Made by a program: the position numbers and the translations under genes
Notes under the pieces: generated by a model
The model's input: only the letters and a program-made list of their open reading frames with translations
Database searches by the model: none
What the model was told of the DNA's origin: nothing
Shown: piece by piece, positions 3,267 to 59,200 of the stretch
How positions within the stretch are numbered: the first letter of the stretch is position 1
Layout: the number at the start of each line of letters is the position of its first letter
Source of the DNA: Syntrophales bacterium
Lineage (GTDB): Bacteria > Desulfobacterota > Syntrophia > Syntrophales > UBA2210
DNA: 64,000 nucleotides
Assembly (NCBI GenBank): GCA_023230565.1
Contig: JALNXD010000016.1
Coordinates: forward strand, 973 to 64,972
Direction: 5' to 3'

Positions 3267-4019
3267 ATGAAAATACTCCGAAAGATCGTCACTATAAATG
3301 AAGAAAAATGCGATGGTTGCGGTCTCTGCACCGAGGCCTGCGCCGAAGGCGCTATACGGATTATTAACGGGAAGGCAAAACTGATTGCCGATAAATACTG
3401 CGACGGCCTGGGGGCCTGTCTCGGAGAATGCCCCCAGGGCGCGATAGACATCACTGAGAGGGAGGCGGAGGCGTTCGACGAGACTGCCGTGGAGGCCCAT
3501 CTTCACAGAGCAGCGCCGTCCATTGCGGAGGATCTGAAGCCCCTGGCCTGCGGCTGTCCTTCGGCGCATATCGAGACCTTTTCAAAAATACCTTCACAGG
3601 GAATGGCCGAGAAGCCGGTTTTAGGAGAAAGTAGTCAATCTGAACTCACTCACTGGCCCGTTCAGATCCGGCTCGTGCCTCCTACGGCCCCTTTTCTCGA
3701 GGGCGCCGATCTGCTTGTGGCCGCTGACTGTACCCCGGTTACCTATGAAAGGTTTCATCAGGATTTTCTGAAAGGGCGGATCGTCCTTATGGGATGCCCG
3801 AAATTCGATGATCAGGAGGCCTATATCGACAAGTTCGCACAGATTTTTCAGAAGGCAGATGTGAAGGGCATAACGGTCCTCGTCATGGAGGTTCCCTGCT
3901 GTCAGGGTCTGCCGGCAATCCTGCAACGTGCAATGGAAAGGGCAGGCAAGGAGATTCCTCTTAAAAGAATGGTCATTACCACCCGCGGGACAATTGCCGG
4001 CACAATGGACATGCATTGA
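3267..4019 (+). CDS. 4Fe-4S ferredoxin-domain protein
   Basis: Motifs CDGCGLCTEAC and CDGLGACLGECP. I chose the ATG at 3267 (MKILRK) because GGAAAGGAA lies upstream. The track ORF begins at 3183. Confidence 0.7.
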   Translation: MKILRKIVTINEEKCDGCGLCTEACAEGAIRIINGKAKLIADKYCDGLGACLGECPQGAIDITEREAEAFDETAVEAHLHRAAPSIAEDLKPLACGCPSAHIETFSKIPSQGMAEKPVLGESSQSELTHWPVQIRLVPPTAPFLEGADLLVAADCTPVTYERFHQDFLKGRIVLMGCPKFDDQEAYIDKFAQIFQKADVKGITVLVMEVPCCQGLPAILQRAMERAGKEIPLKRMVITTRGTIAGTMDMH

Positions 4020-4265
4020 GGAAGAACTCGGCGATAATGAAGATGTTCTCGGACAAAGTCCGAAACTTGCGTATTAGATGGTTTCGTAAAAAGCTACTCA
4101 CACCGGAAGGCCGGTAATATGAGTGTAAGTTCGTAACGCTGACACAACGCTCATTAGCAGCTCTGTGCCGTTTAGAGAAGGGAATTTTTCAGGTCAGACC
4201 TGTGTTTCGATCGTGCGTCATTTTGCGAAGCAGTACGTGCACACTCGCACATAGCAAAAAATGCT

Positions 4266-5531
4266 TCACCCTTCCGGTTCGTTATCTTTGCAGGCGTCCG
4301 GAGCGTCCAGGGTGAGGCTTTCTATCTGCGGGAGCGACGCTCCTATGATCCCTTGCATATCTCCGTACATCCCGATAGTATTCTGTACGACACGTTCGAT
4401 CTGCTTTTCCCGTTTGGCCCAGATACGCGTCATGGCCCTTTTTTCCTGATCCAGATCCCCCTTCATGGAAATGAAAGTCTCGACAATGGCCTCGATCTTC
4501 TGCCTGAATTCAGGACCGGAGAGATAATTATAGAGCACTTCCATCTTTTCATTTTTTCCCACCGAAGCACGCTTGGTAAGGGCCACCTGGATCAGAGACA
4601 TCCGGAGGGCCGTCACCAAACCGACGACGGAGATATAATCGGTCACCCATATGCCATCAATATAGGCGAAATGCGGCACCTCCTTCGGCAACGCAACCGT
4701 AAAGAGGACGGCGATATCGGCCCGCATCTCCCTCTGATCGTCCTTGAGTTTGTCGATCCAGCCGTCGCTCCAGGCTTTGGTGCGCTTTGACTCCCACAAA
4801 ATGGCTCCGCACAAGTGCCCGGCGCCGTTATGCACCTTCTGAAAGACATCAGCGCCTCGGATGCCTTTCGGTACCGGTTCGATTTCGTCACAAGGGAAAT
4901 GTCCTCTCAGGATATCTTCCAGTTCCAGTTCAAGAACCTCGCCCTGCATCTGCTGCGAACCCTGTTCAGCCTTCCGCCGCATCTCCTCGATCTGTTTCTT
5001 TAAATCACCGATGAGCTTGTCTTTATCGAGATCCTTGAGTCGCTGCGCCTCCTGCATTTCGGCCACAGCAGCGTCCCTGATCCGCCGGCGTTCTTCATCA
5101 AGCTTCCGCGCCATCTCGAGTTCAAAGGCGCGTTTTGCCTCTTCCAGTTCCCTTCGCTCTTTTCTCAAGGCCAGCTCGAGCTCCTGAGCCTCATCCAGCC
5201 GCCGATTCTTTTCATCGATCTGGGTGCGAAGATCCTTAAGCTCAGCCTCTACGGCTTTGCTCATCCTGAGTTTTGTTTCCTTTTCGATCCTTTCCTGCTC
5301 AACTTTCAGACGTTCGGTAATAGTGGAATCGAAGGACTTTCTCTCCCGGACGAGCCGTTCTTCCTTTTCTTTTAATGCTGAAATCCTTTCCTGAAGCTCG
5401 AACTCTTTTTTTCGGGTCTCTTCTTCCTGTTCTTTTTTCAGTTCCTCTCTGATCCGGTGGGATATTGCCTCTGTAAGAGGGATTTCCCGTCTGCAGTTGG
5501 GACAGATAATTACGTTTTCCGGCATTCTCAT
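4266..5531 (-). CDS. DUF2130-family protein (CxxC zinc ribbon, long coiled coil, C-terminal nuclease-like domain)
   Basis: N-terminal ICPNCRREIPLTEA. About 200 aa of E/K/R-rich heptad-like sequence follows. The C-terminal globular part has GADVFQ...ILWESKRTKAWSDGWIDKLKDD. Confidence 0.65.
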   Translation of the reverse strand: MRMPENVIICPNCRREIPLTEAISHRIREELKKEQEEETRKKEFELQERISALKEKEERLVRERKSFDSTITERLKVEQERIEKETKLRMSKAVEAELKDLRTQIDEKNRRLDEAQELELALRKERRELEEAKRAFELEMARKLDEERRRIRDAAVAEMQEAQRLKDLDKDKLIGDLKKQIEEMRRKAEQGSQQMQGEVLELELEDILRGHFPCDEIEPVPKGIRGADVFQKVHNGAGHLCGAILWESKRTKAWSDGWIDKLKDDQREMRADIAVLFTVALPKEVPHFAYIDGIWVTDYISVVGLVTALRMSLIQVALTKRASVGKNEKMEVLYNYLSGPEFRQKIEAIVETFISMKGDLDQEKRAMTRIWAKREKQIERVVQNTIGMYGDMQGIIGASLPQIESLTLDAPDACKDNEPEG

Positions 5532-44514: not shown

Positions 44515-44525
44515 CTATTATTATC

Positions 44526-44570
44526 TGGCGTCCCCACGGAGAGTCGAACCCCGGTCGCCGGCGTGAAAGG
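44526..44570 (-). repeat. Direct repeat 1: 3-prime 45 nt of tRNA-Glu(UUC), not an intact tRNA (att-like)
   Basis: The reverse complement is CCTTTCACGCCGGCGACCGGGGTTCGACTCTCCGTGGGGACGCCA. That covers the anticodon loop CUUUCAC, the T-arm and the acceptor 3-prime strand plus CCA. No D-arm or 5-prime acceptor strand lies upstream. Confidence 0.8.
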
Positions 44571-44736
44571 GCTTCCATGCCACCCTGATTTTATTGGCTA
44601 TTTCCTTGCAAAAGAGTCATCAGAGGCATCATAATACACCACGTTGTGTGTCCAAGAATGTGTCCAGAGTTAGATTTGCAACAAGGCGACATAACTAATA
44701 CATACTACAAAAATAAATGTTCAGAGAATGCCACCG

Positions 44737-46245: not shown

Positions 46246-46492
46246 CATGGCACACAGGTTATCAGCAATAGTTTGACTGTTGAAACCCTTCTTACTGGAG
46301 CTGCCCTTAAGTGATGTTAGCGGCGGGAAATACTTACTCTCATTAAGAGCGGAATGTCGGCATCCAGCTTACCGGCCTGTTACGCCGATGTCCTAAAGAA
46401 TTTTGCATTAATAATATCAAATTCTTATGATGTGTGAATTTCGAAAAATAACCGGAGAAAGGACTTATGGTGTGTCCACAAGTGTGTCCGCC

Positions 46493-46528: not shown

Positions 46529-46536
46529 GAATTATT

Positions 46537-46585
46537 TGGCGTCCCCACGGGGAGTCGAACCCCGGTCGCCGGCGTGAAAGGCCGG
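46537..46585 (-). repeat. Direct repeat 2: 3-prime 49 nt of tRNA-Glu(UUC), not an intact tRNA (att-like)
   Basis: The reverse complement is CCGGCCTTTCACGCCGGCGACCGGGGTTCGACTCCCCGTGGGGACGCCA. That is the full anticodon stem-loop through CCA. The sequence beyond it is not a D-arm. Confidence 0.8.
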
Positions 46586-46745: not shown

Positions 46746-47915
46746 ATGCCAATAAATACAAGGTATTATACGAAATACCCAGGCGTGTATTACATCATAG
46801 GAACGGCAATATCTACCGGTAAGCCAGAAAAAATTTATTACATCCGTTACCGTAAAGATGGAAAGGAGATTGAAGAAAAAGCTGGACGACAGTTTGAGGA
46901 TGATATGACTCCGGCACGTGCGGCGCAACGTCGTACTAAACGTATTGAAGGAGAATTATCAAATAAAGAAAGACGTGAGGCAATTGAGGCAGAGAAGCAA
47001 GCACAAGAAAACAAGTGGACAATAGATCGACTATGGGATCTTTACAAAACCACTCTCACAAATGACAAAAGCCGTAAAGTGGATGATAGTAGGTATAAAA
47101 AATACATTAAAGATCGATTCGGAGTTAAGGAACCTCATGAATTAATATTACTTGACGTCGATCGATTGAGATTAAGACTATCTAAAAAATTATCTCTACA
47201 AACCGTCAAACATATTCTGACGCTCCTTGACAGGATCATCAATTTCGGAGTAAAGCGCAATCTCTGTCAGCCACTTTCATTCCACATCAAAAAGCCACAA
47301 GTAAATAATATTAAAACCGAGGATCTGTCGCCTGAACAGCTCAAAAAGCTCTTGGAGGCTATTGAGAAGGATGATAACGTAAATGCAAAAGGCATGATGA
47401 AAATGGCTCTCTATACAGGCATGCGTCGAGGAGAAATGTTCAAACTTAAATGGAACGACATCGACTTTGAACGTGGATTCATTGCGATTAAAGATTCGAA
47501 AGGCGGAGTTGACCAGAAGATTCCCCTCAATGATGCTTCGCGAAAGATGCTTCAGTCACACCCGAAAACAAGAAGCTCTTTTGTATTTCCTGGTCGTGAT
47601 GGAGTACAGAGAGTCAAAATAGATCATGCTGTCGGCCGGATCAAGAAGAATGCTGACTTACCAAAAGAATTCCGACCACTCCACGGCTTGCGACACGTCT
47701 ATGCATCAATGCTGGCGTCAAGTGGCAAAGTCGATATGTATACGCTTCAGCGTCTTCTTACACACAAAAGCTCTGTTATGACTCAGAGATATGCACATCT
47801 TCGTGATGAGGCACTTCGTGGCGCAGCTGATCTTGCTGGATCAATTATTGAAGATGTGGAGAAGAAAAAGATTAATAACCAGAAGGTTGTAAACATCGAA
47901 GACCATAAAAATTAG
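46746..47915 (+). CDS. int: Tyrosine recombinase / phage-type integrase
   Basis: Catalytic residues in TGMRRGE, HGLRHVYAS and LLTHKSSVMTQRYAHL. Confidence 0.9.
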   Translation: MPINTRYYTKYPGVYYIIGTAISTGKPEKIYYIRYRKDGKEIEEKAGRQFEDDMTPARAAQRRTKRIEGELSNKERREAIEAEKQAQENKWTIDRLWDLYKTTLTNDKSRKVDDSRYKKYIKDRFGVKEPHELILLDVDRLRLRLSKKLSLQTVKHILTLLDRIINFGVKRNLCQPLSFHIKKPQVNNIKTEDLSPEQLKKLLEAIEKDDNVNAKGMMKMALYTGMRRGEMFKLKWNDIDFERGFIAIKDSKGGVDQKIPLNDASRKMLQSHPKTRSSFVFPGRDGVQRVKIDHAVGRIKKNADLPKEFRPLHGLRHVYASMLASSGKVDMYTLQRLLTHKSSVMTQRYAHLRDEALRGAADLAGSIIEDVEKKKINNQKVVNIEDHKN

Positions 47916-47982
47916 AGGTCCTATTGACATTTGGGCGGTGTTGTATTACTTTTACAACAGGAAAGAAAAAGGAGGTGAAAAT

Positions 47983-48363
47983 ATGGCCGCCCCCGAGACA
48001 TTTGGCGAATATTTTAAACAAAAAAGGATCGAAAATAATATAACTCTAAGAGAATTTTGTCGGGTGAACGGCTTTGATCCCGGAAATATAAGCAAAATTG
48101 AGAGAGGGCTCTTCCCACCTCCGCAATTGAAGGAAACACTTGAAAAATATGCAAGAGCACTCAACATTCAAGAGGGGACAGATGATTGGTATGAATTCTG
48201 TGATTTAGCCGCAACAAGCGCCGGCAAAATACCCCCCGACATGGTTTCAAATGAAGAATTGATGAAGGCGTTGCCAGTGTTATTCAGAAAAGTGAGAGAT
48301 AAAGATTTTGATAATGAGGATTTGGATAAGCTTATAGGCGCGATTAAAAAGGAACTGCGCTAA
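47983..48363 (+). CDS. XRE-family HTH regulator
   Basis: FGEYFKQKRIENNITLREFCRVNGFDPGNISKIERG. GGAGGTG lies 5 nt before the ATG at 47983. Confidence 0.8.
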   Translation: MAAPETFGEYFKQKRIENNITLREFCRVNGFDPGNISKIERGLFPPPQLKETLEKYARALNIQEGTDDWYEFCDLAATSAGKIPPDMVSNEELMKALPVLFRKVRDKDFDNEDLDKLIGAIKKELR

Positions 48364-48968
48364 TGGTTGAAGCACCGTATCTGAAATACGTTGATGTCAC
48401 GCAGGAAGTTGAATCATTTTTACAAATATATCATCCATCTCGGACTATTCCTATTCCGGTTGAAGAAATAATTGACCTACAGTTGAAAATCAATATTTAT
48501 CCCTTTCCAAGGCTCTATAAAGATTTTGGCCTTAACGGATTCCTCAGCTGCGATCGGTCAACGATCTATGTAGATGAATACCAGTACGAGCAATTTTATG
48601 AAAAATACCGGTATACGCTTGCTCATGAGCTTGGGCATTTTGTGCTTCATAAGAATCTTTATGAAAATTTTAATTTTGAGAATGCAATTCAATATGTGGA
48701 ATGGAGAGAATCAATGTCACCAAATGATATCGACTGGTTTGAAAAGCATGCCGATTGGTTCGCAGAACAACTTTTAGTGCCAGCGAATGCTTTGACGGAT
48801 GCCTGCCAGAACATAATCAATATATATCAGCATGTATATCAAAAATACAAAGATTCTCCCGATGATTTTTGGTCTTATGCTTCCAGTGAAATTGCACGAT
48901 CATTTGATGTAAACCAGCCAGTTGTCGAAGTTAGGATCAAACGAGAAAAGTTGAATTATTCGTATTGA
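48363..48968 (+). CDS. ImmA/IrrE-family (DUF955) metallopeptidase
   Basis: HEXXH motif in YTLAHELGHFVLH. The start overlaps the XRE stop (TAATG). Confidence 0.85.
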   Translation: MVEAPYLKYVDVTQEVESFLQIYHPSRTIPIPVEEIIDLQLKINIYPFPRLYKDFGLNGFLSCDRSTIYVDEYQYEQFYEKYRYTLAHELGHFVLHKNLYENFNFENAIQYVEWRESMSPNDIDWFEKHADWFAEQLLVPANALTDACQNIINIYQHVYQKYKDSPDDFWSYASSEIARSFDVNQPVVEVRIKREKLNYSY

Positions 48969-49027: not shown

Positions 49028-50149
49028 TTGAACGATGTGAAAATGAAGGATCTTGAAAAGACTGAGAAGGTAATTCAGGAATTAATTTTTGACATTACCC
49101 GTGAGAATTTTCTCTCTGATATATCTTCGTATGATAATCGTGACCTTTTAAAACTTGACGGGATACTCTTTTTTGCCTGTGCTGATGCTGTTATAAGACT
49201 TCTTGGGATTAACCCCGAGATTTCCGACATGTGGATTGTACTGGATGAAGCCGCTCTATTTGCAAAGGAATTGACACCGGAAAGAATCGCAAAATTATAT
49301 TTACAAACCGGCGATGAAATCGCCGTTGTTGAACTGATTTACCATCGGGTGAATAGGCATCGGACTCAAGAGGAAGTATTGCGTAGAGTAACTCATCTAA
49401 AATATGGAGGAAATAGACTGTTTAATTTTATAGCTCTTACTAATCAAGACAATCTTGACAAGCTTCTTCGAGAGTACGGGTCGTGTGTAAAAGCTTTTCG
49501 ACATAATTGTGGCATAGGTAGCTCCAGTTTGGATAATGCTCTAAGAGGCAAATATTTTAAAGGAGCAGACGATATTAAAGGAAAGGCTCTTGTTGCGCTG
49601 TATGAGTCTCTTAATGAGTTGAAAGAAAATGTTAAGGTTTCAGAAATAGAAGAACTTGAACCCATCCCACTTTCGCGCTCAGTGAATCAACTTAAATGGG
49701 AAGCGGCTAAAACAGGAATCATGCGTGTGAAACTTGCAGCAACAATTCAAACATACTTGCCGATACTTGAAGGTACGGCAGAAAAGATCCCATTAAAAAT
49801 GCATGATAGGTTTAAGAGTCAGCGAGTAAAAGAGGGAAGAGAAATTCTAGAAAGCGGGGATGTATCTTCTCACGATATTGACAAAATTCTTATAGACGAT
49901 CCCCCCAGACGTTTTAAACGTTCTGGATCGAAGAAAAAGCGGGAAGGTGTTGTTGCGGCGATTGCACTGCAGGAAACCTGCCGAATACTCATTTCTCGAG
50001 CGCGTGATCCGGAAGTAGCAAAGAAGGCAATCACCATGATTGTAAGAGGATATTCAACTGCTGAGATTAGAGCGGAGACAAGGATGAGCGAAAGACAGAT
50101 TCGAGAATATAAAAAACAGCTTAAGGACGTTTCCAGCCTTGATCTGTAA
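49028..50149 (+). CDS. Hypothetical protein with C-terminal HTH-like segment
   Basis: Long ORF with coherent composition. The C-terminus MIVRGYSTAEIRAETRMSERQIREYKKQL looks like a sigma-r4/LuxR-type HTH. The start is uncertain (TTG 49028 or ATG 49043). Confidence 0.5.
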   Translation: MNDVKMKDLEKTEKVIQELIFDITRENFLSDISSYDNRDLLKLDGILFFACADAVIRLLGINPEISDMWIVLDEAALFAKELTPERIAKLYLQTGDEIAVVELIYHRVNRHRTQEEVLRRVTHLKYGGNRLFNFIALTNQDNLDKLLREYGSCVKAFRHNCGIGSSSLDNALRGKYFKGADDIKGKALVALYESLNELKENVKVSEIEELEPIPLSRSVNQLKWEAAKTGIMRVKLAATIQTYLPILEGTAEKIPLKMHDRFKSQRVKEGREILESGDVSSHDIDKILIDDPPRRFKRSGSKKKREGVVAAIALQETCRILISRARDPEVAKKAITMIVRGYSTAEIRAETRMSERQIREYKKQLKDVSSLDL

Positions 50150-51746
50150 AAAACTTGCAGCCTTGTGCAAGTTTGAAGGTGATCTCCATACCGTTCGGGT
50201 TTTCAAAGGTTGTCCAGTTCTTTGCTTTGATGATCCGAGCCTTTCCGGGTTCCATTGTAAGATATAGGCGCGCTTTCTCAAGCCCTCGACCGCCACCCAG
50301 GCCATAATCAGCGCCTTTGTTTTTTTGTATGGCAATTACAGCAATTCCTTTTTTCAGCTTGTCGTAGATTTCTTTAATGAGACCGCCAATTTTGTAAAAC
50401 TCATCATACACTTCCAGAAAATCTATAATATTGATTGCATCGGGCTTTATTACGTCGGCAAAGTTTGAAGCTCTTTCTTTTGGATGGAATTTCCAGTCTT
50501 CAAGTGGAGCATCAAATTTTTTCAGTCTTTTACGCAATTCGAGTGCGCCCATTTCGGATGAAAAATAGTATATCTCGTACCGGGCCATGTTTTTCTGAAC
50601 AAGATTCAGAAGAAAAGCTGTTTTCCCTGAATTCGGCTCGCCTGCAACGACGATGATATTACCCGGCATGATCTGCACATGGTCTTCGATTCGGAAGGGC
50701 CATCTGATATCCATTGCAGTATCGGTCGCACTAATAAAATCAATATCCTCGCACTGTGTGTTAACAGTGCGATATACTCCGTTTTTGTTTCCATGTTTTT
50801 CAATAATTCCAGCTTTATGGAGCCGGTGTACAGCAGCTCGAACAGCATTTTTTTCTTCTTTTGTAACACTTTGTAACGCTTGGTAACACTCTGTAATACT
50901 CCAGTAACCATTTGTAACGCTTACCCAGTCCTCGGCATCCTTGTGAATATTGCGTTCCTTGCGCCTCGCTCTCTCCAAAACGGAGTCAATCTTAACTTGC
51001 GCCTCTTTTGGCGAAAAAAGGGGATTACAATTATTTGCAAGTATATCAAGGATATGCCTTGCATCACTTTCAGACATGCCGCCTTTGATGAGGCAATGTG
51101 CAGTGTGAAAAAGTGAATCATCCCGTTTACCCTGTTCAAAACTTACTGTAACATCTGTAACGTCTTGTAACGGTTGGTAATGATCTGTAACGCTGTTATA
51201 ACTTCCTCTTACATTCCTAATGCTAGAATTTATATTATTTATATAGGCACGCGGCAATGGGCCGGGCTGAATGTCATCAATGCTTAAACCTTCTACCCAC
51301 TGATACCCCTTACCAGTTCCATTTCTAGACGGTGGTGCAACGACATATCCGCCTCTGCCCCTGAAATCGATTCCAGGCAAAGCGCGTGCATTGATTGTCA
51401 GGTTCAAGTCCTCAGGATATTTAAAATATAGATGCGTACCCCCGCGCGGCGTTTGAACTGTGGGGGTTACTATTCCTTCGGGAAAATACTCAAGCTCTAT
51501 GTCTTCACTATAGTCCTGGGCATAGCGGTCAATATCAACAACACAGATTTCGCTTATCGGACCTGTAACGACTCCGATCATCGCCTTGGGGTATTGATTC
51601 CACCATTCCCGAATTTCATCTTCTGTGGGTAACCGGTCTTGAAATTCTTTCCATGCGATGAGAGGTTTCTTGTTTTTCCCAACAGGTATTATTGAATATC
51701 CATTTCTCAGATATTGGATTGCCGCCTTCAGATAAATTTTTTCCAT
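50121..51746 (-). CDS. Bifunctional primase-polymerase (PrimPol) fused to a P-loop helicase-like replicase
   Basis: N-domain: GYSIIPVGKNKKPLIAWKEFQ, VVDIDRY, TPRGGTHLYF, GYVVAPPS. C-domain: Walker A GEPNSGKT. The ATG at 51746 has GGAGGTG upstream. The track ORF extends to 51899. Confidence 0.8.
   Translation of the reverse strand: MEKIYLKAAIQYLRNGYSIIPVGKNKKPLIAWKEFQDRLPTEDEIREWWNQYPKAMIGVVTGPISEICVVDIDRYAQDYSEDIELEYFPEGIVTPTVQTPRGGTHLYFKYPEDLNLTINARALPGIDFRGRGGYVVAPPSRNGTGKGYQWVEGLSIDDIQPGPLPRAYINNINSSIRNVRGSYNSVTDHYQPLQDVTDVTVSFEQGKRDDSLFHTAHCLIKGGMSESDARHILDILANNCNPLFSPKEAQVKIDSVLERARRKERNIHKDAEDWVSVTNGYWSITECYQALQSVTKEEKNAVRAAVHRLHKAGIIEKHGNKNGVYRTVNTQCEDIDFISATDTAMDIRWPFRIEDHVQIMPGNIIVVAGEPNSGKTAFLLNLVQKNMARYEIYYFSSEMGALELRKRLKKFDAPLEDWKFHPKERASNFADVIKPDAINIIDFLEVYDEFYKIGGLIKEIYDKLKKGIAVIAIQKNKGADYGLGGGRGLEKARLYLTMEPGKARIIKAKNWTTFENPNGMEITFKLAQGCKFFTDQGWKRP
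50861..50920. repeat. Iteron cluster A: six GTAAC/GTAAT cores at 10-11 bp spacing
   Basis: TTGTAACACT TTGTAACGCT TGGTAACACT CTGTAATACT CCAGTAACCA TTTGTAACGC. The cluster lies inside the replicase gene. Confidence 0.6.
51146..51193. repeat. Iteron cluster B: five GTAAC/GTAAT cores at 9-10 bp spacing
   Basis: CTGTAACAT CTGTAACGT CTTGTAACGG TTGGTAATGA TCTGTAACGC. It has the same orientation as cluster A and lies 285 bp from it. Confidence 0.6.
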
Positions 51747-54185: not shown

Positions 54186-56459
54186 GTGGACATGAATACC
54201 GAAGTACATCAATCACAAGCAATTAATCTATTTACGTTTATACGTGAATTCGCACAGCTTAATCAAAAGCCTGTTGAAACACTTGACTCATATATCAAAA
54301 CCTTTTGGTTGGATCAGATACCGCATGAACCGGAGTGCAGCTGTGCGGCATGGGATGGCCAAGATGAGCATGACAATGAGATGACAATAGAGAATTGGCT
54401 TTCTATAGAGCGTCCTGAACGTCCTGATTTACCAAATGCACCAGAAACAACAGAACCTTGGATAAACAAAATTCAATGGGAAGACTCTTCAGTTGAATAT
54501 CCAGAGCTATATTCAAAAATTTTAAATCCGCAATGGGATATAAAAAGTTCTGAAGATGTACCTAAATTTTTGGAGCTGCAAGATTATCCTCACGTCAAAG
54601 AGACATGGGACAATTATATTGAGGACGCGTGGTGGCCGTGGGCGGAGAAAGATCGTGTCAAAGTACATGTGCAAGAATGTTATGATGCGCTATTCAGTTT
54701 GCACCGGACACAGCTTACAATGGGTGAGCAGTATGAGTTTTTGCTTGCCTCTGGATGTCTCCACTGGACTACGCCATCTGGAAGAAAAATAAAGCGACAT
54801 CTGTTGACGTTGCCGATTACCATTGAATTCGACTCTGTTAATGCAATCGTGTCAGTAAAATCGGCCGAAAGTACTGCAGAAGTCCAACTCGAAAGTGACA
54901 TGCTCGGGATAAATGAGCAACCAGGCATAGACATAGCAAATGATTCAGAAATAAGACGTGCGATGCTTGGGGGTAACCTGTTCCATCCAGATGCAAAGAC
55001 ATTATTAACGGCCTGGGTACAGGGACTAAGTTCAGAGGGAACGTTTAAAGATATCTTTTCCGAGGTGCAGGGTACATCGTCATCAAAGCCAGAAGTCTGG
55101 TTTGCGCCTGCACTGATCGTGCGTCGAAGGACCCAAAGAAACCTCATAGCGGCATGCGATGCAATCATCAAGAATCTTCAGACTAATGGTGCTGATATTC
55201 CCCAAGGAATTCGAAAGATCATTGGCGAACTCGGAGTGGATACCAATTCATTTTCTGATTATGACGATAACGAAGGTAATGAACGAAGTTATGTCGATGT
55301 GGGTGATGGGGAGATTTATTTTCCCCTCGATTACAACGATGATCAGAAGAGGATTTTACAAACGCTCAACAACCAGGCCGGTGTGCTCGTGCAAGGCCCC
55401 CCAGGTACAGGCAAGTCTCAGACCATCGCTAACCTTATCTGCCACCTATTGGCAACAGGTAAACGCATCCTGGTGACAAGCCAAAAAGCCCCAGCATTAC
55501 GTGTTTTAAAAAATAAGCTCGGGGAATATGCCCCCGATGTTGCAAACATGTGCGTTATGGTACTTGGAGAAGGCAATGATGAACAGCAGGAGTTGCGGCG
55601 TTCGGTTACGGAGATTGTAAACCGCTATTCGAATTGGTCGGATCGGCATTCACAAAAGAAGATCCAGGAATTTCGAACAACACTTCGAAAAGCACGAGAG
55701 TCGGAGGCCAAAGCCATCGAGAATCTATGTGCACTTCGTCAGAAAGAAACAGAAAATTTCCCCTTCGGCAACTACACAGGAACTCTGGAGCAAATTGCTC
55801 GTCAAATCCGCGACGAAGAAAGTCGTTTTACATGGTTCCGTGATCGGCTTCCCGGGGACTGCTCGCTGCTTGATGCACCTTTACCGCCCTTACCGATAGT
55901 GGATGAGTGGCTTACAAAAATCCTCTCCTTTTTGAGGGAAATCTCTACAGACGAAGAAGAGCGCTGTAGCAAACATCTGCTGAATCTCGATCAGGTGGTT
56001 GATCCCGTTGAGTTCTCCCGTATTGTTAAAGAAGAAAAAGTGGCGCTTGATGCTGTTGAAACACAACGGGAGTTTTTATCGGACCAGTGGCAAAAGGGGG
56101 TGGATCAGGCAGACGACAAAATTCTGATATCAATGTTAGGTGAACTTGATGAATATTTAGGGTGCCTCCGTTCATTTTTGAACAATGGAACCAGTTGGTT
56201 AAAACTGGCGGCGCAGGATGTGCTGAGTGGTAATGCGGCTCGATGGCAGGCACTGCATCACAGGAGCCAAGACCTCTTAAATGAAATAAGAGAAAAAACC
56301 ACCGTGTCGGAGATCTCGAAATTTCAGGTATTGAAGTTCGGTCCCAACGAGCAGTCCTGCAGGATGCGCGTGACCTTCGGGCTCATATTGCTCAGCAAGG
56401 TCGCCTTGGATTCTGGATTTTACGCCCTGCCTGTGTCAAACAGGCACTATATCTGCTAA
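54186..56459 (+). CDS. SF1 (Upf1/DNA2-like, DUF4011-type) helicase-nuclease, N-terminal segment up to a frame break
   Basis: Walker A VLVQGPPGTGKSQTIANLI with a DUF4011-like N-region. The last ~45 codons before the stop look non-native. Confidence 0.8.
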   Translation: MDMNTEVHQSQAINLFTFIREFAQLNQKPVETLDSYIKTFWLDQIPHEPECSCAAWDGQDEHDNEMTIENWLSIERPERPDLPNAPETTEPWINKIQWEDSSVEYPELYSKILNPQWDIKSSEDVPKFLELQDYPHVKETWDNYIEDAWWPWAEKDRVKVHVQECYDALFSLHRTQLTMGEQYEFLLASGCLHWTTPSGRKIKRHLLTLPITIEFDSVNAIVSVKSAESTAEVQLESDMLGINEQPGIDIANDSEIRRAMLGGNLFHPDAKTLLTAWVQGLSSEGTFKDIFSEVQGTSSSKPEVWFAPALIVRRRTQRNLIAACDAIIKNLQTNGADIPQGIRKIIGELGVDTNSFSDYDDNEGNERSYVDVGDGEIYFPLDYNDDQKRILQTLNNQAGVLVQGPPGTGKSQTIANLICHLLATGKRILVTSQKAPALRVLKNKLGEYAPDVANMCVMVLGEGNDEQQELRRSVTEIVNRYSNWSDRHSQKKIQEFRTTLRKARESEAKAIENLCALRQKETENFPFGNYTGTLEQIARQIRDEESRFTWFRDRLPGDCSLLDAPLPPLPIVDEWLTKILSFLREISTDEEERCSKHLLNLDQVVDPVEFSRIVKEEKVALDAVETQREFLSDQWQKGVDQADDKILISMLGELDEYLGCLRSFLNNGTSWLKLAAQDVLSGNAARWQALHHRSQDLLNEIREKTTVSEISKFQVLKFGPNEQSCRMRVTFGLILLSKVALDSGFYALPVSNRHYIC

Positions 56460-56509: not shown

Positions 56510-59200
56510 ATGCTGATCGATTGGCTGGAGCTTTCGCAGGCAATTAGGCAACTTGATGAACAGTGGGCAGCGGTGATGAATCCAAAACAGGACAATATTC
56601 CCCTCAATCAGCAGATCAGCGGCTACAAACATGCTCATTTAAAGCTGGATGCCGTCTTTGAACTTCGAACATTGTCCCACCGCCTTGATGAAAGCCTCAA
56701 ACCCTTGGGTCGTAGTGTTTCGCCTGCATGGCATGAGCAAGGGGAGGTTGAGAAACTTCGAAACATTTTAGAGGCCCAGATTGCACAGAGGCAGCTAAGA
56801 AAAGCGTCACTAATAATTGATAACTTGGAGGATTCCGTTAGATCATCCTGCCTTCATCCTGATGCGGCGCCTGAGAATCATGCTCTCCGCAACGCAATTA
56901 AGGGTCGATTTATTGATGAGTATACAAGGTCCCATTCAGAATTAAAAGGGCTGTGGAACTTGCGGAGGTCGGTTGAAGAGCGTGATCGATGGTATGCGGA
57001 GCTAATGAACAAACTTCCATGCCTGGCTGTGGATCTGAGAGAATCGTACACTGACCCTGAGTGGGATTCACGTCTGGCCGAAGTGACGGATGCCTGGAAT
57101 TGGGTATGTGCCGATGCATGGCTCCATCAGATAACCGATCCTGAAGCAGAAAAACTATTGGATCGCCGAATAAAGCAATGCAGGAAAGAAAGCTCTTTGG
57201 CTCTGTCATCGCTGGCAGCTGAGCTGGCCTGGAAGCATTGCATGAACAGCATGACAGAGGGTCACTTCCAAGGCCTTATGGCATGGCGGAAGGCTATGGA
57301 AAAATTAGGGAAGGGAACAGGCAAATACGTAGAACGCAACAGAAGCATTGCACGTGAACGATTGGAGGAGTGCCGTGGTGCAATCCCTGCCTGGATCATG
57401 CCACTATATAAGGTCTTGGATACGGTTGCTATTGGAAAGGGTATTTTCGATGTAGCAATTATTGATGAGGCAAGTCAGTCGGGAGCAGATGCGTTGTTTC
57501 TAACTTTCCTGGCGAAAAAAATAGTGATTGTCGGGGACGATCAGCAGATCCGGCCGGCAAACGTCGGAATTGACTATAATGACGTTCACCAGCTTCAAAG
57601 TCGTTTCCTGCGTGACATCCCCAAATGGGACATCTTCGATCCAACTGGTAGCCTCTTTAGCATTGCTGAAGTTCGTTTTGGAAACCCCATACGCCTGCGA
57701 GAACATTTCCGCTGCATGCCGGAGATTATCGCATTTTCTAATCGTCTCTGCTATCAGGATCAGCCGCTTATACCATTGCGTCAGTTCGGTAATGATAGAC
57801 TCAAACCGGTTTTATGCACCCATTATATTGAAGGGGGTTATCAGGAGGGACGTAAAACAAACCCCAGAGAAGCAGAGGCGATTTGTGAAGCAATCGTGCG
57901 CTGCTGCGAAGATTCCCTTTACGAGGGCAAGAGTTTTGGTGTGATCAGCTTGCTCCACTCATCTGAACAGGACCGTTTGATCGAACAACTCCTGTTCAAG
58001 CGCCTCGACGCTGAGGAAATAGTAAATCGAAACATAGTATGCGGCGACGCCTATGATTTTCAGGGTGATGAAAGGGATGTCATATTTTTAAGCATGGTAT
58101 CTGCACGAAGTAATAACGGCCGAATTGGTACGATGGCTGATGAAAAAGCAAAACGTCGCTTCAATGTTGCCGTCAGTCGTGCGCGTGATCAAGTCTTTCT
58201 CTTTCACTCGGTTCAAGAGAATGAGTTGGGGCAGAACTGTTACCGTCGCCGATTGCTCGCTCATATGAAACAGCCAGAGCCGGATGTTTCTGTATTGCCT
58301 CCTGAGGTTGATTCTATAACAGATCTTCGACGTATTGCTGAAACTGCTAAAAGAAACTTCGATTCTCCCCCACACCCCTTCGATAGCTGGTTTGAAGTGG
58401 ATGTCTATCTCATTATCGCGGAGCAGGGGTACATGGTAATCCCCCAATATAAAATACATGGGTACCGCATTGACTTGGTTGTTGAGGGTGAACATAGGAA
58501 GCTTGCTGTCGAGTGCGACGGTGACAGATGGCACGGTCTTGAGCGACATGAGGAGGATCTTCGTCGTCAACGGGAATTGGAACGCTGTGGTTGGGAGTTC
58601 TTTCGTGTGCGTGGCAGCAGTTTTTATCGTGATCCCGCAAAAGCCATGCTTCCTCTCTGGGAGATCCTGAGTAGTTCGGAATTCAGTTCCAGGGATGTTG
58701 ATAGTAAGGACCATGAAGAACCCCGGCGGCAGAGAAGTGATGGAGAAGGCTACCCCGAAGAAAGAAAAGAAGAAGCCGTCAATGATGACGCAAAGACAGA
58801 CAGCACAAGTAAAACAGGCACTTCTTCAGAATTTTCTTCGGGCGATGCCAACGAAAGGGATGAAGAAACAACAAAAGGCAGCTCTCTGGAAGCAGGCGAA
58901 CGATCCTATGGGCAACACACAATCGATGATGTTTTGTCAATGTCGAGCAGGCAACTTGGCAGAATCATATGCGATATCTTGGAAAAATGCCCGAATTACT
59001 CCTCAAAAAAAGATGATCTAACCAAGCGGGTCTGTGGTTATTTTGGTGTCCTGACGAGGGGACGGCCACGGCAAAAGCTCGAAAAGAAAATTGGGTGGGC
59101 CATTTCTCATCTCAAGAAGGTCGAAAAAATAGAGGTTTACAGGGCAAAAAATATGCGGGTACGGCTTTTATCTCCACCGAGTCAAGAGAAGTTGTTTTAA
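56510..59200 (+). CDS. Same helicase-nuclease, C-terminal segment: helicase motifs II-VI plus a DUF559/Vsr-like endonuclease domain
   Basis: VAIIDEASQ, VIVGDDQQIRP, GDAYDFQGDERDVIFLSMV, FNVAVSRARDQVFLFHS. The nuclease region is YRIDLVVEGEHRKLAVECDGDRWH...GWEFFRV. This frame is open from 56285. Confidence 0.85.
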   Translation: MLIDWLELSQAIRQLDEQWAAVMNPKQDNIPLNQQISGYKHAHLKLDAVFELRTLSHRLDESLKPLGRSVSPAWHEQGEVEKLRNILEAQIAQRQLRKASLIIDNLEDSVRSSCLHPDAAPENHALRNAIKGRFIDEYTRSHSELKGLWNLRRSVEERDRWYAELMNKLPCLAVDLRESYTDPEWDSRLAEVTDAWNWVCADAWLHQITDPEAEKLLDRRIKQCRKESSLALSSLAAELAWKHCMNSMTEGHFQGLMAWRKAMEKLGKGTGKYVERNRSIARERLEECRGAIPAWIMPLYKVLDTVAIGKGIFDVAIIDEASQSGADALFLTFLAKKIVIVGDDQQIRPANVGIDYNDVHQLQSRFLRDIPKWDIFDPTGSLFSIAEVRFGNPIRLREHFRCMPEIIAFSNRLCYQDQPLIPLRQFGNDRLKPVLCTHYIEGGYQEGRKTNPREAEAICEAIVRCCEDSLYEGKSFGVISLLHSSEQDRLIEQLLFKRLDAEEIVNRNIVCGDAYDFQGDERDVIFLSMVSARSNNGRIGTMADEKAKRRFNVAVSRARDQVFLFHSVQENELGQNCYRRRLLAHMKQPEPDVSVLPPEVDSITDLRRIAETAKRNFDSPPHPFDSWFEVDVYLIIAEQGYMVIPQYKIHGYRIDLVVEGEHRKLAVECDGDRWHGLERHEEDLRRQRELERCGWEFFRVRGSSFYRDPAKAMLPLWEILSSSEFSSRDVDSKDHEEPRRQRSDGEGYPEERKEEAVNDDAKTDSTSKTGTSSEFSSGDANERDEETTKGSSLEAGERSYGQHTIDDVLSMSSRQLGRIICDILEKCPNYSSKKDDLTKRVCGYFGVLTRGRPRQKLEKKIGWAISHLKKVEKIEVYRAKNMRVRLLSPPSQEKLF

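Follow-up and report, generated by a model that had tools for sequence, protein, structure and literature searches.

A replicase gene of 541 codons lies in an integrase-bearing island within the window, by which we mean the whole 64-kb stretch of DNA that was analysed. An att-like direct repeat, its two copies 96% identical, lies at the left edge of the island, where GC content drops from about 55% to about 40%. After the integrase gene come genes for an XRE HTH protein and an ImmA/IrrE peptidase. Frame breaks were flagged elsewhere in the island on first reading, and the copy in the window may therefore no longer be active.

46531 to 46581, no strand: att-like direct repeat at the left island edge (other copy at 44520-44570)
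46746 to 47915, plus strand: tyrosine integrase (Pfam PF00589, E 5e-32)
47938 to 48363: XRE HTH gene after the integrase (Pfam HTH_3)
48363 to 48968: ImmA/IrrE peptidase gene (Pfam Peptidase_M78)
50121 to 51746, minus strand: replicase gene, 541 aa, ATG at 51746 (from the open reading frame and its translation)

The replicase comprises, in order, a Prim-Pol domain, a helix encoded by AT-rich DNA, a disordered linker, a PriCT helical bundle, a winged helix and a DnaB/RecA-like helicase. The domain match (PF09250, E 2.5e-35, profile positions 1-156 of 158) and the catalytic acidic and histidine motifs (D72, D74, H106 and D128, invariant or nearly so across the alignment) place the N-terminal part in the Prim-Pol archaeo-eukaryotic primase family, and the protein resembles pRN1 ORF904 both in a PDB search (E 5e-08) and in Foldseek (3m1m, E 6e-10). 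PriCT_1 (PF08708) is annotated on many of its homologues. The helicase part is predicted to be a DnaB/RecA-like (SF4-type) domain: it matches DnaB_C (PF03796, E 2.5e-07, 30.8 bits, cut-off 27), its Walker A motif GEPNSGKT is conserved in the homologue alignment, and its top Foldseek and HMM matches are DnaB structures. We found no match to O-type initiators in Pfam or the PDB and none to Rep_3 or related families in Pfam. The AlphaFold2 model (mean pLDDT 90.6; its own residue numbers run one above Met1 numbering) contains a confidently modelled winged helix, at about aa 262-335, whose helix 3 is the predicted recognition helix, with specificity positions N300, R303 (codon 50838-50840), A304 and H307 in Met1 numbering.

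Two phased repeat arrays within the replicase gene

The gene contains two clusters of short, regularly spaced repeats, at nucleotides 556-600 and 829-885 of the coding sequence. These and the features around them are listed here in window coordinates.

50814 to 50861, minus strand: codons of the predicted recognition helix, aa 296-311, KEEKNAVRAAVHRLHK (helix 297-312 in model numbering)
50863 to 50918, minus strand: iteron cluster A, six units in gene-strand register 0, 10, 21, 31, 41, 51
50921 to 51145, minus strand: spacer between the clusters, encoding the PriCT-like helical bundle, 56% AT (gene mean 57%)
51148 to 51191, minus strand: iteron cluster B, five units with gene-strand spacing of 10, 10, 10 and 9 bp
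51207 to 51246, no strand: AT-rich tract, 80% AT, on the promoter-proximal side of cluster B at a distance of 15 bp

Together the clusters hold nine GTAAC and two GTAAT cores, all on one strand and about 10 bp apart, and Tandem Repeats Finder reports a period of 10 for both. On the plus strand, cluster A has GTAAC at 50863, 50873, 50883, 50904 and 50914 and GTAAT at 50893 (spacing 10, 10, 10, 11, 10), while cluster B has GTAAC at 51148, 51157, 51167 and 51187 and GTAAT at 51177 (spacing 9, 10, 10, 10); 285 bp separate the first core of cluster A from that of cluster B. This agrees with an earlier note on the same DNA as to the six cores of cluster A, the spacings and the 285 bp, and amends its cluster B to four exact GTAAC cores plus one GTAAT. 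In gene-strand order, the units read GTTACA, GTTACT, ATTACA, GTTACC, GTTACA, GTTACA in cluster A and GTTACA, ATTACC, GTTACA, GTTACA, GTTACA in cluster B. The earlier note had also placed both clusters in the linker between primase and helicase. That holds for cluster B, which encodes aa 186-200 (VTDHYQPLQDVTDVT), mostly in the disordered linker after the primase domain (pLDDT below 50 at model residues 181-198), but cluster A encodes aa 277-295 (VTNGYWSITECYQALQSVT), the end of H1, beta-1 and H2, and thus the first half of the winged-helix domain. The folded PriCT domain is encoded between the two. A degenerate inverted copy near 51024 (ATTACA, plus strand, in the middle of the spacer) is a single hexamer with one mismatch and is indistinguishable from chance.

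The AT-rich tract encodes part of an N/I/S-rich helix and is the most AT-rich 40-bp window of the replicase gene; only 0.9% of the 40-bp windows in the island reach 80% AT. Its homologous position has an AT excess of +0.13 across the family. We regard the tract as a candidate DNA-unwinding element.

GTAAC occurs 68 times on both strands of the window where 59 copies are expected, yet 9 of the 41 plus-strand copies fall inside the 333-bp array stretch (0.17 expected, Poisson P = 2e-13), so that the enrichment is local, and nowhere else in the 64-kb window do at least 3 copies lie within 60 nt. On the gene strand, GTTAC is read in three codon phases, as V-T (GTT ACA), as G-Y (GGT TAC) and as A-L-Q (GCG TTA CAA). 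When the gene was shuffled with protein sequence and codon usage held constant, the two array regions contained 3.1 copies of GTTAC on average and 7 at most (9 observed; 0 of 5000 shuffles), and the phased-array score averaged 2.0 with a maximum of 6.0 (9.0 observed; 0 of 300 shuffles).

An alignment-based genome scan yielded relatives; a genome scan with the single protein gave none. The family consists of widespread phage and island replicases, found chiefly in metagenome-assembled genomes of Desulfobacterota and in viral contigs that reach 76 kb. Some 125 distinct homologues, taken from genomes and from viral contigs, retain both positions as well as the phasing, and the word is lineage-specific, with more than 20 words in a fixed register (GTTACA, TCTACA, TCGTCA, TCCACA, ACCACA, ACTTCA, CTTACA, ACTACG, GTGACA, GCGACA, GGGACA, GCAACA and others). 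The encoded peptide follows the word: conserved Gly280 is followed by Y, V, F, H, N or D, depending on the word alone. Lineage-specific words occupy the cluster A register in 40 of 63 full-length homologues of a first set and 18 of 31 of a second, at a false-positive rate of about 0.2% for the array criterion away from the two array sites; clear in-gene arrays are absent from about a third of full-length homologues. In 54 non-redundant homologues, self-identity at a lag of 10 peaks only at aa 179-203 (0.51) and aa 281-296 (0.47) over a background of 0.25. The content of cluster B can be predicted from the word of cluster A alone (2.85 cognate copies versus 0.08 non-cognate copies), and a paralogue in the same genome (75% amino-acid identity) has the identical word at identical places.

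These data bear on an alternative in which the arrays reflect a repeat at the peptide level, a recent duplication or mere chance. The two encoded peptides are indeed alike (SVTDHYQPLQDVT and SITECYQALQSVT). A 10-bp period, however, cannot be a peptide period, the codon choice goes beyond what the peptide needs (no shuffle reached the observed count), and the homologues conserve the DNA periodicity and not the peptide. We consider this explanation effectively refuted. The earlier note had taken the reading of one DNA word in three codon phases as a sign of selection at the DNA level, and the shuffles and the homologues bear this out; it had also suggested testing for an excess of GTAAC, which proves to be local rather than window-wide, and had reasoned that the idea would fail if homologues kept the peptide and lost the 10-bp periodicity. 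The opposite was found: periodicity is kept at both places, and peptide and word vary.

Covariation of the repeat word with the predicted recognition helix

Outside the residues encoded by the iterons themselves, alignment columns 303, 304 and 307 have the strongest association with the word in the whole protein. In the window these columns hold R303, A304 and H307, all on the predicted recognition helix. Pairs of homologues that share a word are 70-93% identical at these columns at any backbone identity from 25 to 95%, and pairs with different words are about 10% identical. The difference between same-word and different-word pairs is 0.665, as against 0.015 +/- 0.037 (maximum 0.118) for control column triples, and the helix-word trend recurs in a set of 120 homologues available as protein only. 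Covariation with the word is absent at helix positions 297-299, 306 and 308. The code from helix to word is degenerate: position 303 can be H, D, Y or M in lineages with CTTACA.

Physical linkage was considered as a cause of this covariation and ruled out. Linkage alone does not explain the pattern because the PriCT domain, encoded between the clusters, does not covary; neither do the neighbouring helix positions, and the association holds where the iterons are extragenic. Relatives without in-gene arrays (L007, L013, L091 and L010) carry arrays directly after the stop codon. In L010, five copies of TGTAA[TC], a 75% AT tract and six inverted copies follow the gene in the layout of SaPI/PICI origins, and its helix (N-R-V-H) is of the same class as that of the window. 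L091 combines TGGACA iterons (reverse complement TGTCCA) with an S-E helix, like the in-gene TGTCCA lineages. The association between helix and word thus also holds in these two relatives, whose repeats sit outside the gene.

A second reading takes the repeats as single-stranded template-recognition or priming sites of the PrimPol/PriCT module, in the way that pRN1 ORF904 needs a GTG motif. The resemblance of the N-terminal half, helix bundle included, to ORF904 and the presence of GT within many words speak for it. Yet the word associates with winged-helix columns 303, 304 and 307, and PriCT and PrimPol columns show no excess association (mean difference about 0.07); words such as ACCACA and ACTTCA have no GTG, and helical phasing at 10 bp is a property of duplex binding. 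We judge the priming-site reading improbable. Less probable still is that the repeats serve some other protein, encoded by the element or by a helper phage, such as a small terminase (pac), an AlpA/Xis-like HTH protein or a partition protein. Phased short repeats do occur in pac and centromere sites, and HTH_17 genes adjoin the replicase gene in many relatives, but the word covaries with the replicase helix even at 25-40% backbone identity, and the part of the island visible in the window has no terminase or par genes.

We therefore favour the reading in which the arrays are iterons bound by the winged helix of the replicase itself. Such binding is predicted from sequence with high confidence. 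That the repeats are bound by the element's own replicase had been proposed in the earlier note, and the covariation of the word with three predicted recognition-helix residues, including in two relatives with extragenic iterons, lends this support. The covariation argues for binding, not for initiation.

Comparison with known origins and a proposed mechanism

The closest parallel is the Rep (PriRep)-ori system of SaPIs and PICIs (SaPIbov1, SaPI5 PriRep5, EcCICFT073). Like the window, these islands encode a primase-helicase with a winged helix and have penta- or hexanucleotide iterons, binding being a prediction in the window, and their island context of integrase, repressor module and replicase is similar. 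PICI/SaPI origins consist of two sets of 5-6-nt iterons, which a self-loading Rep recognises through its winged helix; as in the window, the two sets span about 300 bp and each island lineage has its own word (PMC6092414; bioRxiv 10.64898/2026.10.17.759575). The window has the corresponding two sets (6 + 5 units), a modelled winged helix and the covariation that goes with predicted binding. It differs in several respects. The SaPI/PICI origin lies immediately 3' of rep, as do the arrays of L007, L013, L091 and L010, whereas the window arrays are inside the reading frame; the SaPI/PICI sets are oppositely oriented, whereas both window sets are on one strand; and the winged helix is at the C-terminus of SaPI/PICI Rep but between primase and helicase in the window protein, whose helicase is DnaB/RecA-like (SF4) and not SF3 or MCM. 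In SaPIs and PICIs the melting region is AT-rich and lies between the sets. Such a region between the clusters was ruled out for the window, where the spacer is not AT-rich, encodes folded PriCT, and leaves the roughly 40-bp tract outside the pair.

In phage lambda, the iterons are about 19 bp each, internally symmetric and bound by dimers of O, which has neither primase nor helicase and recruits host DnaB via P. The window protein has no Pfam or PDB match to initiators of the lambda O type and, in place of a separate helicase loader, carries its own primase and helicase. Ori-lambda sits in the middle of gene O, with four iterons (six in Stx phages) and an adjacent AT-rich tract, and extra iterons add residues to the protein (PMC7466680). 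The window shares this in-gene arrangement, with both arrays and the 80% AT tract within the coding sequence. It differs in that its sites are direct repeats of 6 nt, spaced at 10 bp and grouped in two clusters, and in that one cluster codes for part of the very domain predicted to read them. P4 alpha is a single primase, helicase and winged-helix protein that binds short repeats in two separated clusters, ori and crr. Those clusters lie outside the alpha gene and kilobases apart, in contrast to the in-gene clusters of the window, and P4 alpha differs in its primase fold and in having an SF3 helicase. The Pfam and PDB searches, whose matches were Prim-Pol/pRN1 and DnaB, detected no sequence relationship to it; PMC6092414 mentions P4 alpha together with its cognate site.

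The replicase is like pRN1 ORF904 (AEP superfamily, PrimPol-PV1 supergroup) in its Prim-Pol domain and helix bundle, by sequence and by fold, and unlike it in its helicase, which is SF3 in ORF904. Fusions of AEP, PriCT, winged helix and helicase are known from mobile elements, and the winged helix has been proposed to act in origin recognition (PMC5862659). The pRN1 minimal replicon needs 166 bp downstream of the replication operon (PMC4234260), and the literature we found describes no in-gene iterons in ORF904-type replicases. Iteron plasmids (Rep_3/RepA) have tandem WH1-WH2 domains and iterons of 17-22 bp, unlike the 6-7-nt units at 10-bp spacing in the window; the iteron sequence of pWTY27 is adjacent to the repAB genes and not inside a gene (PMC3583192). 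Lambda O is already a known case of an origin within an initiator gene, and SaPI/PICI and P4 are known cases of iteron origins with two sets; the window case is a variant of these. Our literature search turned up nothing direct on in-gene iterons in PrimPol-DnaB-like replicases or N15 repA, and no bench study of these replicase elements.

The earlier note had called this stretch the origin of the element. By analogy with lambda O, SaPI/PICI and P4, and with those relatives in which a canonical PICI-type origin directly follows the gene on its 3' side, we infer that the arrays form the replication origin, which we consider likely. The main competitor accepts binding by the winged helix but makes the arrays control sites, an autoregulatory roadblock or a means of copy-number 'handcuffing', with the true origin elsewhere. 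Plasmid iterons serve initiation and control alike, covariation indicates binding only, and the inter-cluster spacer lacks AT-richness. On the other hand, the 64-kb window has no other phased array of the word, sites 550-880 nt into the gene are badly placed to control a promoter, and in relatives arrays of this kind lie just 3' of the gene, arranged with an AT-rich core as in a canonical origin. A purely regulatory role therefore seems unlikely to us.

As an origin, the stretch might work as follows. The iterons would be helically phased double-strand sites. The replicase, whose gene is this same DNA, would read each of them with its recognition helix (aa 296-311). Upon derepression of the island, for which the XRE/ImmA module points to DNA damage as a trigger, the PrimPol/winged-helix/DnaB-like protein would be made and would assemble on the six sites of cluster A and the five of cluster B, with a putative stoichiometry of, for example, six sites for a hexamer. 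It would then melt nearby DNA, most plausibly the AT-rich tract adjoining cluster B, load its own helicase ring and prime with its PrimPol domain. Assembly, melting, loading and priming of this kind would make the 330-bp stretch an origin inside the reading frame of its own initiator.

The predicted recognition helix comes within the next 15 codons after cluster A, which itself codes for the first half of the winged helix. Origin and reading domain could thus be one overlapping, co-inherited 'specificity cassette' that allows switching among the more than 20 words while the protein stays functional, a proposal that we make tentatively and hold slightly less probable than its converse. A cis-acting DNA signal here dictates amino acids in a folded domain, an instance of overlapping codes. 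For annotation, such arrays can be used to predict origins within genes, a place that origin finders usually pass over, and the natural pairs of word and helix suggest helix swaps to retarget binding and to build orthogonal replicons. The analysis provides a predicted origin and specificity rule for uncultured elements with a replicase family that is uncharacterised. If the cassette reading is true, word versus residues 300, 303, 304 and 307 would be a natural recognition code for a winged-helix initiator, and it could decide which replicons are incompatible, or which resist hijacking, when phages and satellites reside in the same host.

Phased repeats inside the replicase gene

A pattern search confirmed both repeat arrays inside the replicase gene, and the period-10 arrays were also called by Tandem Repeats Finder. 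The core spacings, 10, 10, 10, 11 and 10 bp in cluster A and 9, 10, 10 and 10 bp in cluster B, are those read in the earlier note. Its count of five cores in cluster B stands for the sites, but only four are exact GTAAC and the fifth is GTAAT.

Replicase gene and its repeats
50121-51746, minus strand: replicase open reading frame, 541 aa from ATG, holding both arrays
50863-50918, plus strand, cluster A: GTAAC at 50863, 50873, 50883, 50904 and 50914; GTAAT at 50893
51148-51191, plus strand, cluster B: GTAAC at 51148, 51157, 51167 and 51187; GTAAT at 51177
51207-51246: AT-rich tract (80% AT), the gene's most AT-rich 40 bp, beginning 15 bp past cluster B

GTAAC is not enriched over the whole window (68 copies versus 59 expected). 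The excess is local: nine of the 41 plus-strand copies fall inside these 333 bp, against an expectation of 0.17 (P = 2e-13), and nowhere else in the window do at least three copies occur within 60 nt. On the gene strand, GTTAC is read in three codon phases, GTT ACA (V-T), GGT TAC (G-Y) and GCG TTA CAA (A-L-Q), as had been described. In synonymous shuffles that kept protein and codon usage constant, the two array regions held a mean of 3.1 GTTAC copies (maximum 7) versus 9 observed (0/5000), and the phased-array score averaged 2.0 (maximum 6.0) versus 9.0 observed (0/300). Together with the shifting peptide of the homologues described below, these shuffles bear out the claim that selection on the arrays acts on the DNA and not on the peptide.

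Pfam places a Prim-Pol domain at the N-terminus of the replicase (E 2.5e-35) and DnaB_C at its C-terminus; in the PDB, the N-terminal half matches pRN1 ORF904 and the C-terminal half DnaB/RadA. Mean pLDDT is 90.6 in an AlphaFold2 model for which 120 homologues were used.

Domains of the AlphaFold2 model (model numbering is Met1 numbering plus 1)
1-166: PrimPol
167-181: helix
181-198: disordered stretch
209-277: PriCT-like bundle of four helices
268-328: canonical winged helix (helices 268-277, 285-292 and 297-312, beta strand 282-284, hairpin 316-328)
onward to the C-terminus: RecA-fold helicase

The earlier note had placed both clusters in the linker between primase and helicase. This holds for most of cluster B (CDS nt 556-600, aa 186-200), which lies mainly in disordered linker, but not for cluster A (CDS nt 829-885, aa 277-295), which codes for the end of helix 1, the beta strand and helix 2 of the winged helix; the long helix 3 comes directly after it.

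Conservation of the arrays among homologues

We collected about 125 distinct homologous loci from related genomes (15 loci), exact look-ups (8), IMG/VR (80) and species-representative genomes (79; Desulfobacterota MAGs for the most part, plus some of Planctomycetota, Acidobacteriota and other groups). In most full-length members an unbiased search found phased 6-mers at the homologous positions, with a word that differs by lineage: GTTACA, CTTACA, (G)TCTACA, (T)GTCGTCA, TCCACA, TCAACA, ACCACA, ACTTCA, ACTACG/A, GTGACA, GTAACA, GTCACA, GCGACA, GGGACA, GCAACA, ACAACA and TCGACA. In the average over 54 sequences, each below 90% identity, self-identity at lag 10 peaks at two places only, aa 179-203 (0.51) and aa 281-296 (0.47), over a background of 0.25, and other lags are flat. 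A family-wide lag-9 bump with an AT excess of +0.16 marks the conserved INIIDFLE helicase motif (window 50420-50460, aa ~437-449) and probably reflects AT-rich codons conserved at the protein level rather than a DNA signal.

The register of cluster A is constant, with units at offsets 0, 10, 21, 31, 41 and 51 relative to the aa 277 codon, each consisting of three variable bases followed by (A/T)CA(A/G). By the consensus criterion used, an array is present at the register in 40/63 and 18/31 full-length homologues (two sets) and, away from the two array sites, at about 0.2% of positions. The residue after a conserved glycine tracks the word: (G/C)TTAC and ACTAC give Y, TCGTC gives V, ACTTC gives F, ACCAC and TCCAC give H, TCAAC and GTAAC give N, and G(C/G/T)GAC gives D. 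The peptide thus follows the DNA. The earlier note had raised the prospect of homologues that keep the peptide and lose the periodicity; the reverse is seen, the 10-bp periodicity being kept while the peptide changes with the word.

Words derived from cluster A alone recur in cluster B at 2.85 cognate versus 0.08 non-cognate copies, with at least three in 27 of 40 loci. In five loci (L019, L023, L024, L051 and L061) cluster B lacks a direct cognate copy and carries two reverse-complement copies, so the orientation of the second set varies among lineages. Some distant homologues have longer single arrays of 9-12 copies (GTGGAC, CGTAAG, CGTCAG or GTCACA). In L014, L016 (CDS nt ~800-925), L059 and L073 the long array maps between PriCT and winged helix and looks inserted when compared with the window protein; in the short-form L070 it lies near the gene start. 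Given this mapping, additional iterons would add linker residues; extra iterons add residues in the O proteins of Stx phages (PMC7466680).

A paralogue with 75% amino acid identity lies on another contig of the same genome (gene 3495-5123) and has GTTACA arrays at the same two sites and the helix T-R-V-H. It belongs to a second integrative element, ordered integrase, 227-aa unknown protein, PrimPol-helicase and type III restriction-modification pair. As replicons of one genome that share a predicted iteron specificity, the two might show cross-activation or incompatibility. Some close homologues lie on contigs binned to archaeal MAGs (Methanomethylophilaceae, Nanoarchaeota, Methanoperedens and others; L109, L127, L139, L152, L154 and L166); with several of these contigs short, they may represent mis-binning or real archaeal viruses.

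Covariation of repeat word and predicted recognition helix

We sorted 36 non-redundant full-length homologues into word groups and ranked the protein columns by association. Iteron-coded residues aside, columns 303, 304 and 307 rank highest in the whole protein; next come 300, 305, 301 and, in the wing, 322. In the model, positions 300, 303/304 and 307 lie together on one face of helix 3, and helix 3 is the usual recognition helix in winged helices. Same-word pairs are 70-93% identical at 303/304/307 at backbone identities of 25-95%, whereas different-word pairs are about 10% identical there at backbone identities of up to 60-95%. The difference between same- and different-word identity is 0.665, versus 0.015 +/- 0.037 (maximum 0.118) when 300 triples of equally variable columns serve as controls. 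The association also appears in a protein-only set of 120 homologues. Physical linkage does not account for the association, since neither helix positions 297-299, 306 and 308 nor the whole PriCT domain between the clusters covaries with the word.

Helix residues (303-304-x-x-307) and their words
R-(V/A)-x-x-H: GT(T/A)ACA
S-I-I-L-(K/R): TCTACA
S-E-x-L-R: TCCACA
S-T-V-L-R: TCGTCA
N-M-x-x-L: ACCACA
(V/S)-(L/Q)-x-L-L: ACTTCA

For certain words, CTTACA among them, the code is degenerate. Several relatives without in-gene arrays have a phased array directly 3' of the stop codon.

Arrays after the stop codon
L007 and L013: TTTACT x5-6
L091: TGGACA x6
L010: five TGTAA(T/C), a ~70-bp tract of 75% AT and six inverted copies

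L010 shares its word with the window and has N-R-V-H at 300/303/304/307, where the window has N-R-A-H; the L091 word (reverse complement TGTCCA) is paired with an S-E helix, which the lineages with in-gene TGTCCA also have. The helix-word link is therefore independent of the repeats being coding. This covariation makes it very likely that the arrays are bound by the winged helix of the replicase itself, as had been suggested.

The element and its candidate origin

GC content drops from ~55% to ~40% at about 46.3-46.6 kb.

Direct repeat adjoining the GC drop
44520-44570 and 46531-46581: 51-bp direct repeat, 96% identical

It flanks a 2-kb segment with a HipA-like kinase gene just left of the integrase, and a second repeat of 20 bp (GTGTGTCCA..GTGTCC) lies beside each copy (44646-44665 and 46470-46489); the pattern looks like tandem insertions at a single att site. 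The repeat is followed downstream by genes for a tyrosine integrase, XRE regulator, ImmA/IrrE peptidase and an unknown protein of 373 aa, and by the replicase gene on the opposite strand. Defence cargo comprises a helicase-nuclease, type I hsdM and hsdS and a GmrSD-like gene. The cargo helicase (AAA_11/AAA_12) and MTES_1575/DUF559 nuclease are split over ORFs 54186-56459 and 56510-59200, in agreement with a frame break noted earlier; either an assembly error or decaying island cargo may account for it. No capsid or terminase gene was seen in the 17 kb of island inside the window. Elsewhere, homologous replicase genes occur in the order integrase, HTH_17, replicase, HK97-capsid, and on IMG/VR viral contigs of up to 76 kb. 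The locus is an integrative island carrying a replicon of its own.

Between the clusters, AT content equals the gene mean (56%). The 80% AT of the tract past cluster B is reached by just 0.9% of the island's 40-bp windows, and an AT excess of +0.13 is seen across the family at the homologous position, where the coded peptide is rich in N/I/K/Y/F. By analogy with ori-lambda, whose iterons have an AT-rich region on one side (PMC7466680), we propose 51207-51246 as a candidate melting site. Derepression of the island would lead to expression of the replicase, whose winged-helix domains would bind the phased sites in both clusters; the protein-DNA complex would distort and open neighbouring DNA, the DnaB-like ring would load itself and the PrimPol/PriCT module would prime.

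The two-cluster segment is probably the replication origin of the element, and the earlier note's interpretation is supported. The L010 arrangement is that of SaPI/PICI origins (PMC6092414; bioRxiv 10.64898/2026.10.17.759575), which indicates that the replicase family also employs such repeats in a recognised origin architecture. The replicase and its arrays resemble the SaPI/PICI Rep-ori systems: a presumably self-loading primase-helicase, a probable winged-helix reader and iterons of 5-6 nt in two sets that span ~300 bp. They depart from that layout in three ways, as the SaPI/PICI origin lies 3' of rep, its sets are opposed and its AT-rich core separates them; the helicase class also differs. 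Like lambda O, the system has its probable origin inside the gene, although initiator and repeat type are unrelated; like P4 ori/crr, it has two separated clusters and a multifunctional alpha-like protein, without detectable homology. Mobile elements with fusions of AEP, PriCT, winged helix and helicase are described, and origin recognition has been proposed as the role of the winged helix (PMC5862659); we found no description of in-gene iterons in this PrimPol/DnaB-like replicase family.

An origin inside the gene would mean that the site is surely transcribed whenever the initiator is made, and that word and reader are inherited as one, the recognition helix being coded at most 15 codons from cluster A. 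The main value of the family lies in its natural series of word-helix pairs and in a cis-signal that overlaps the codons of its own reader.
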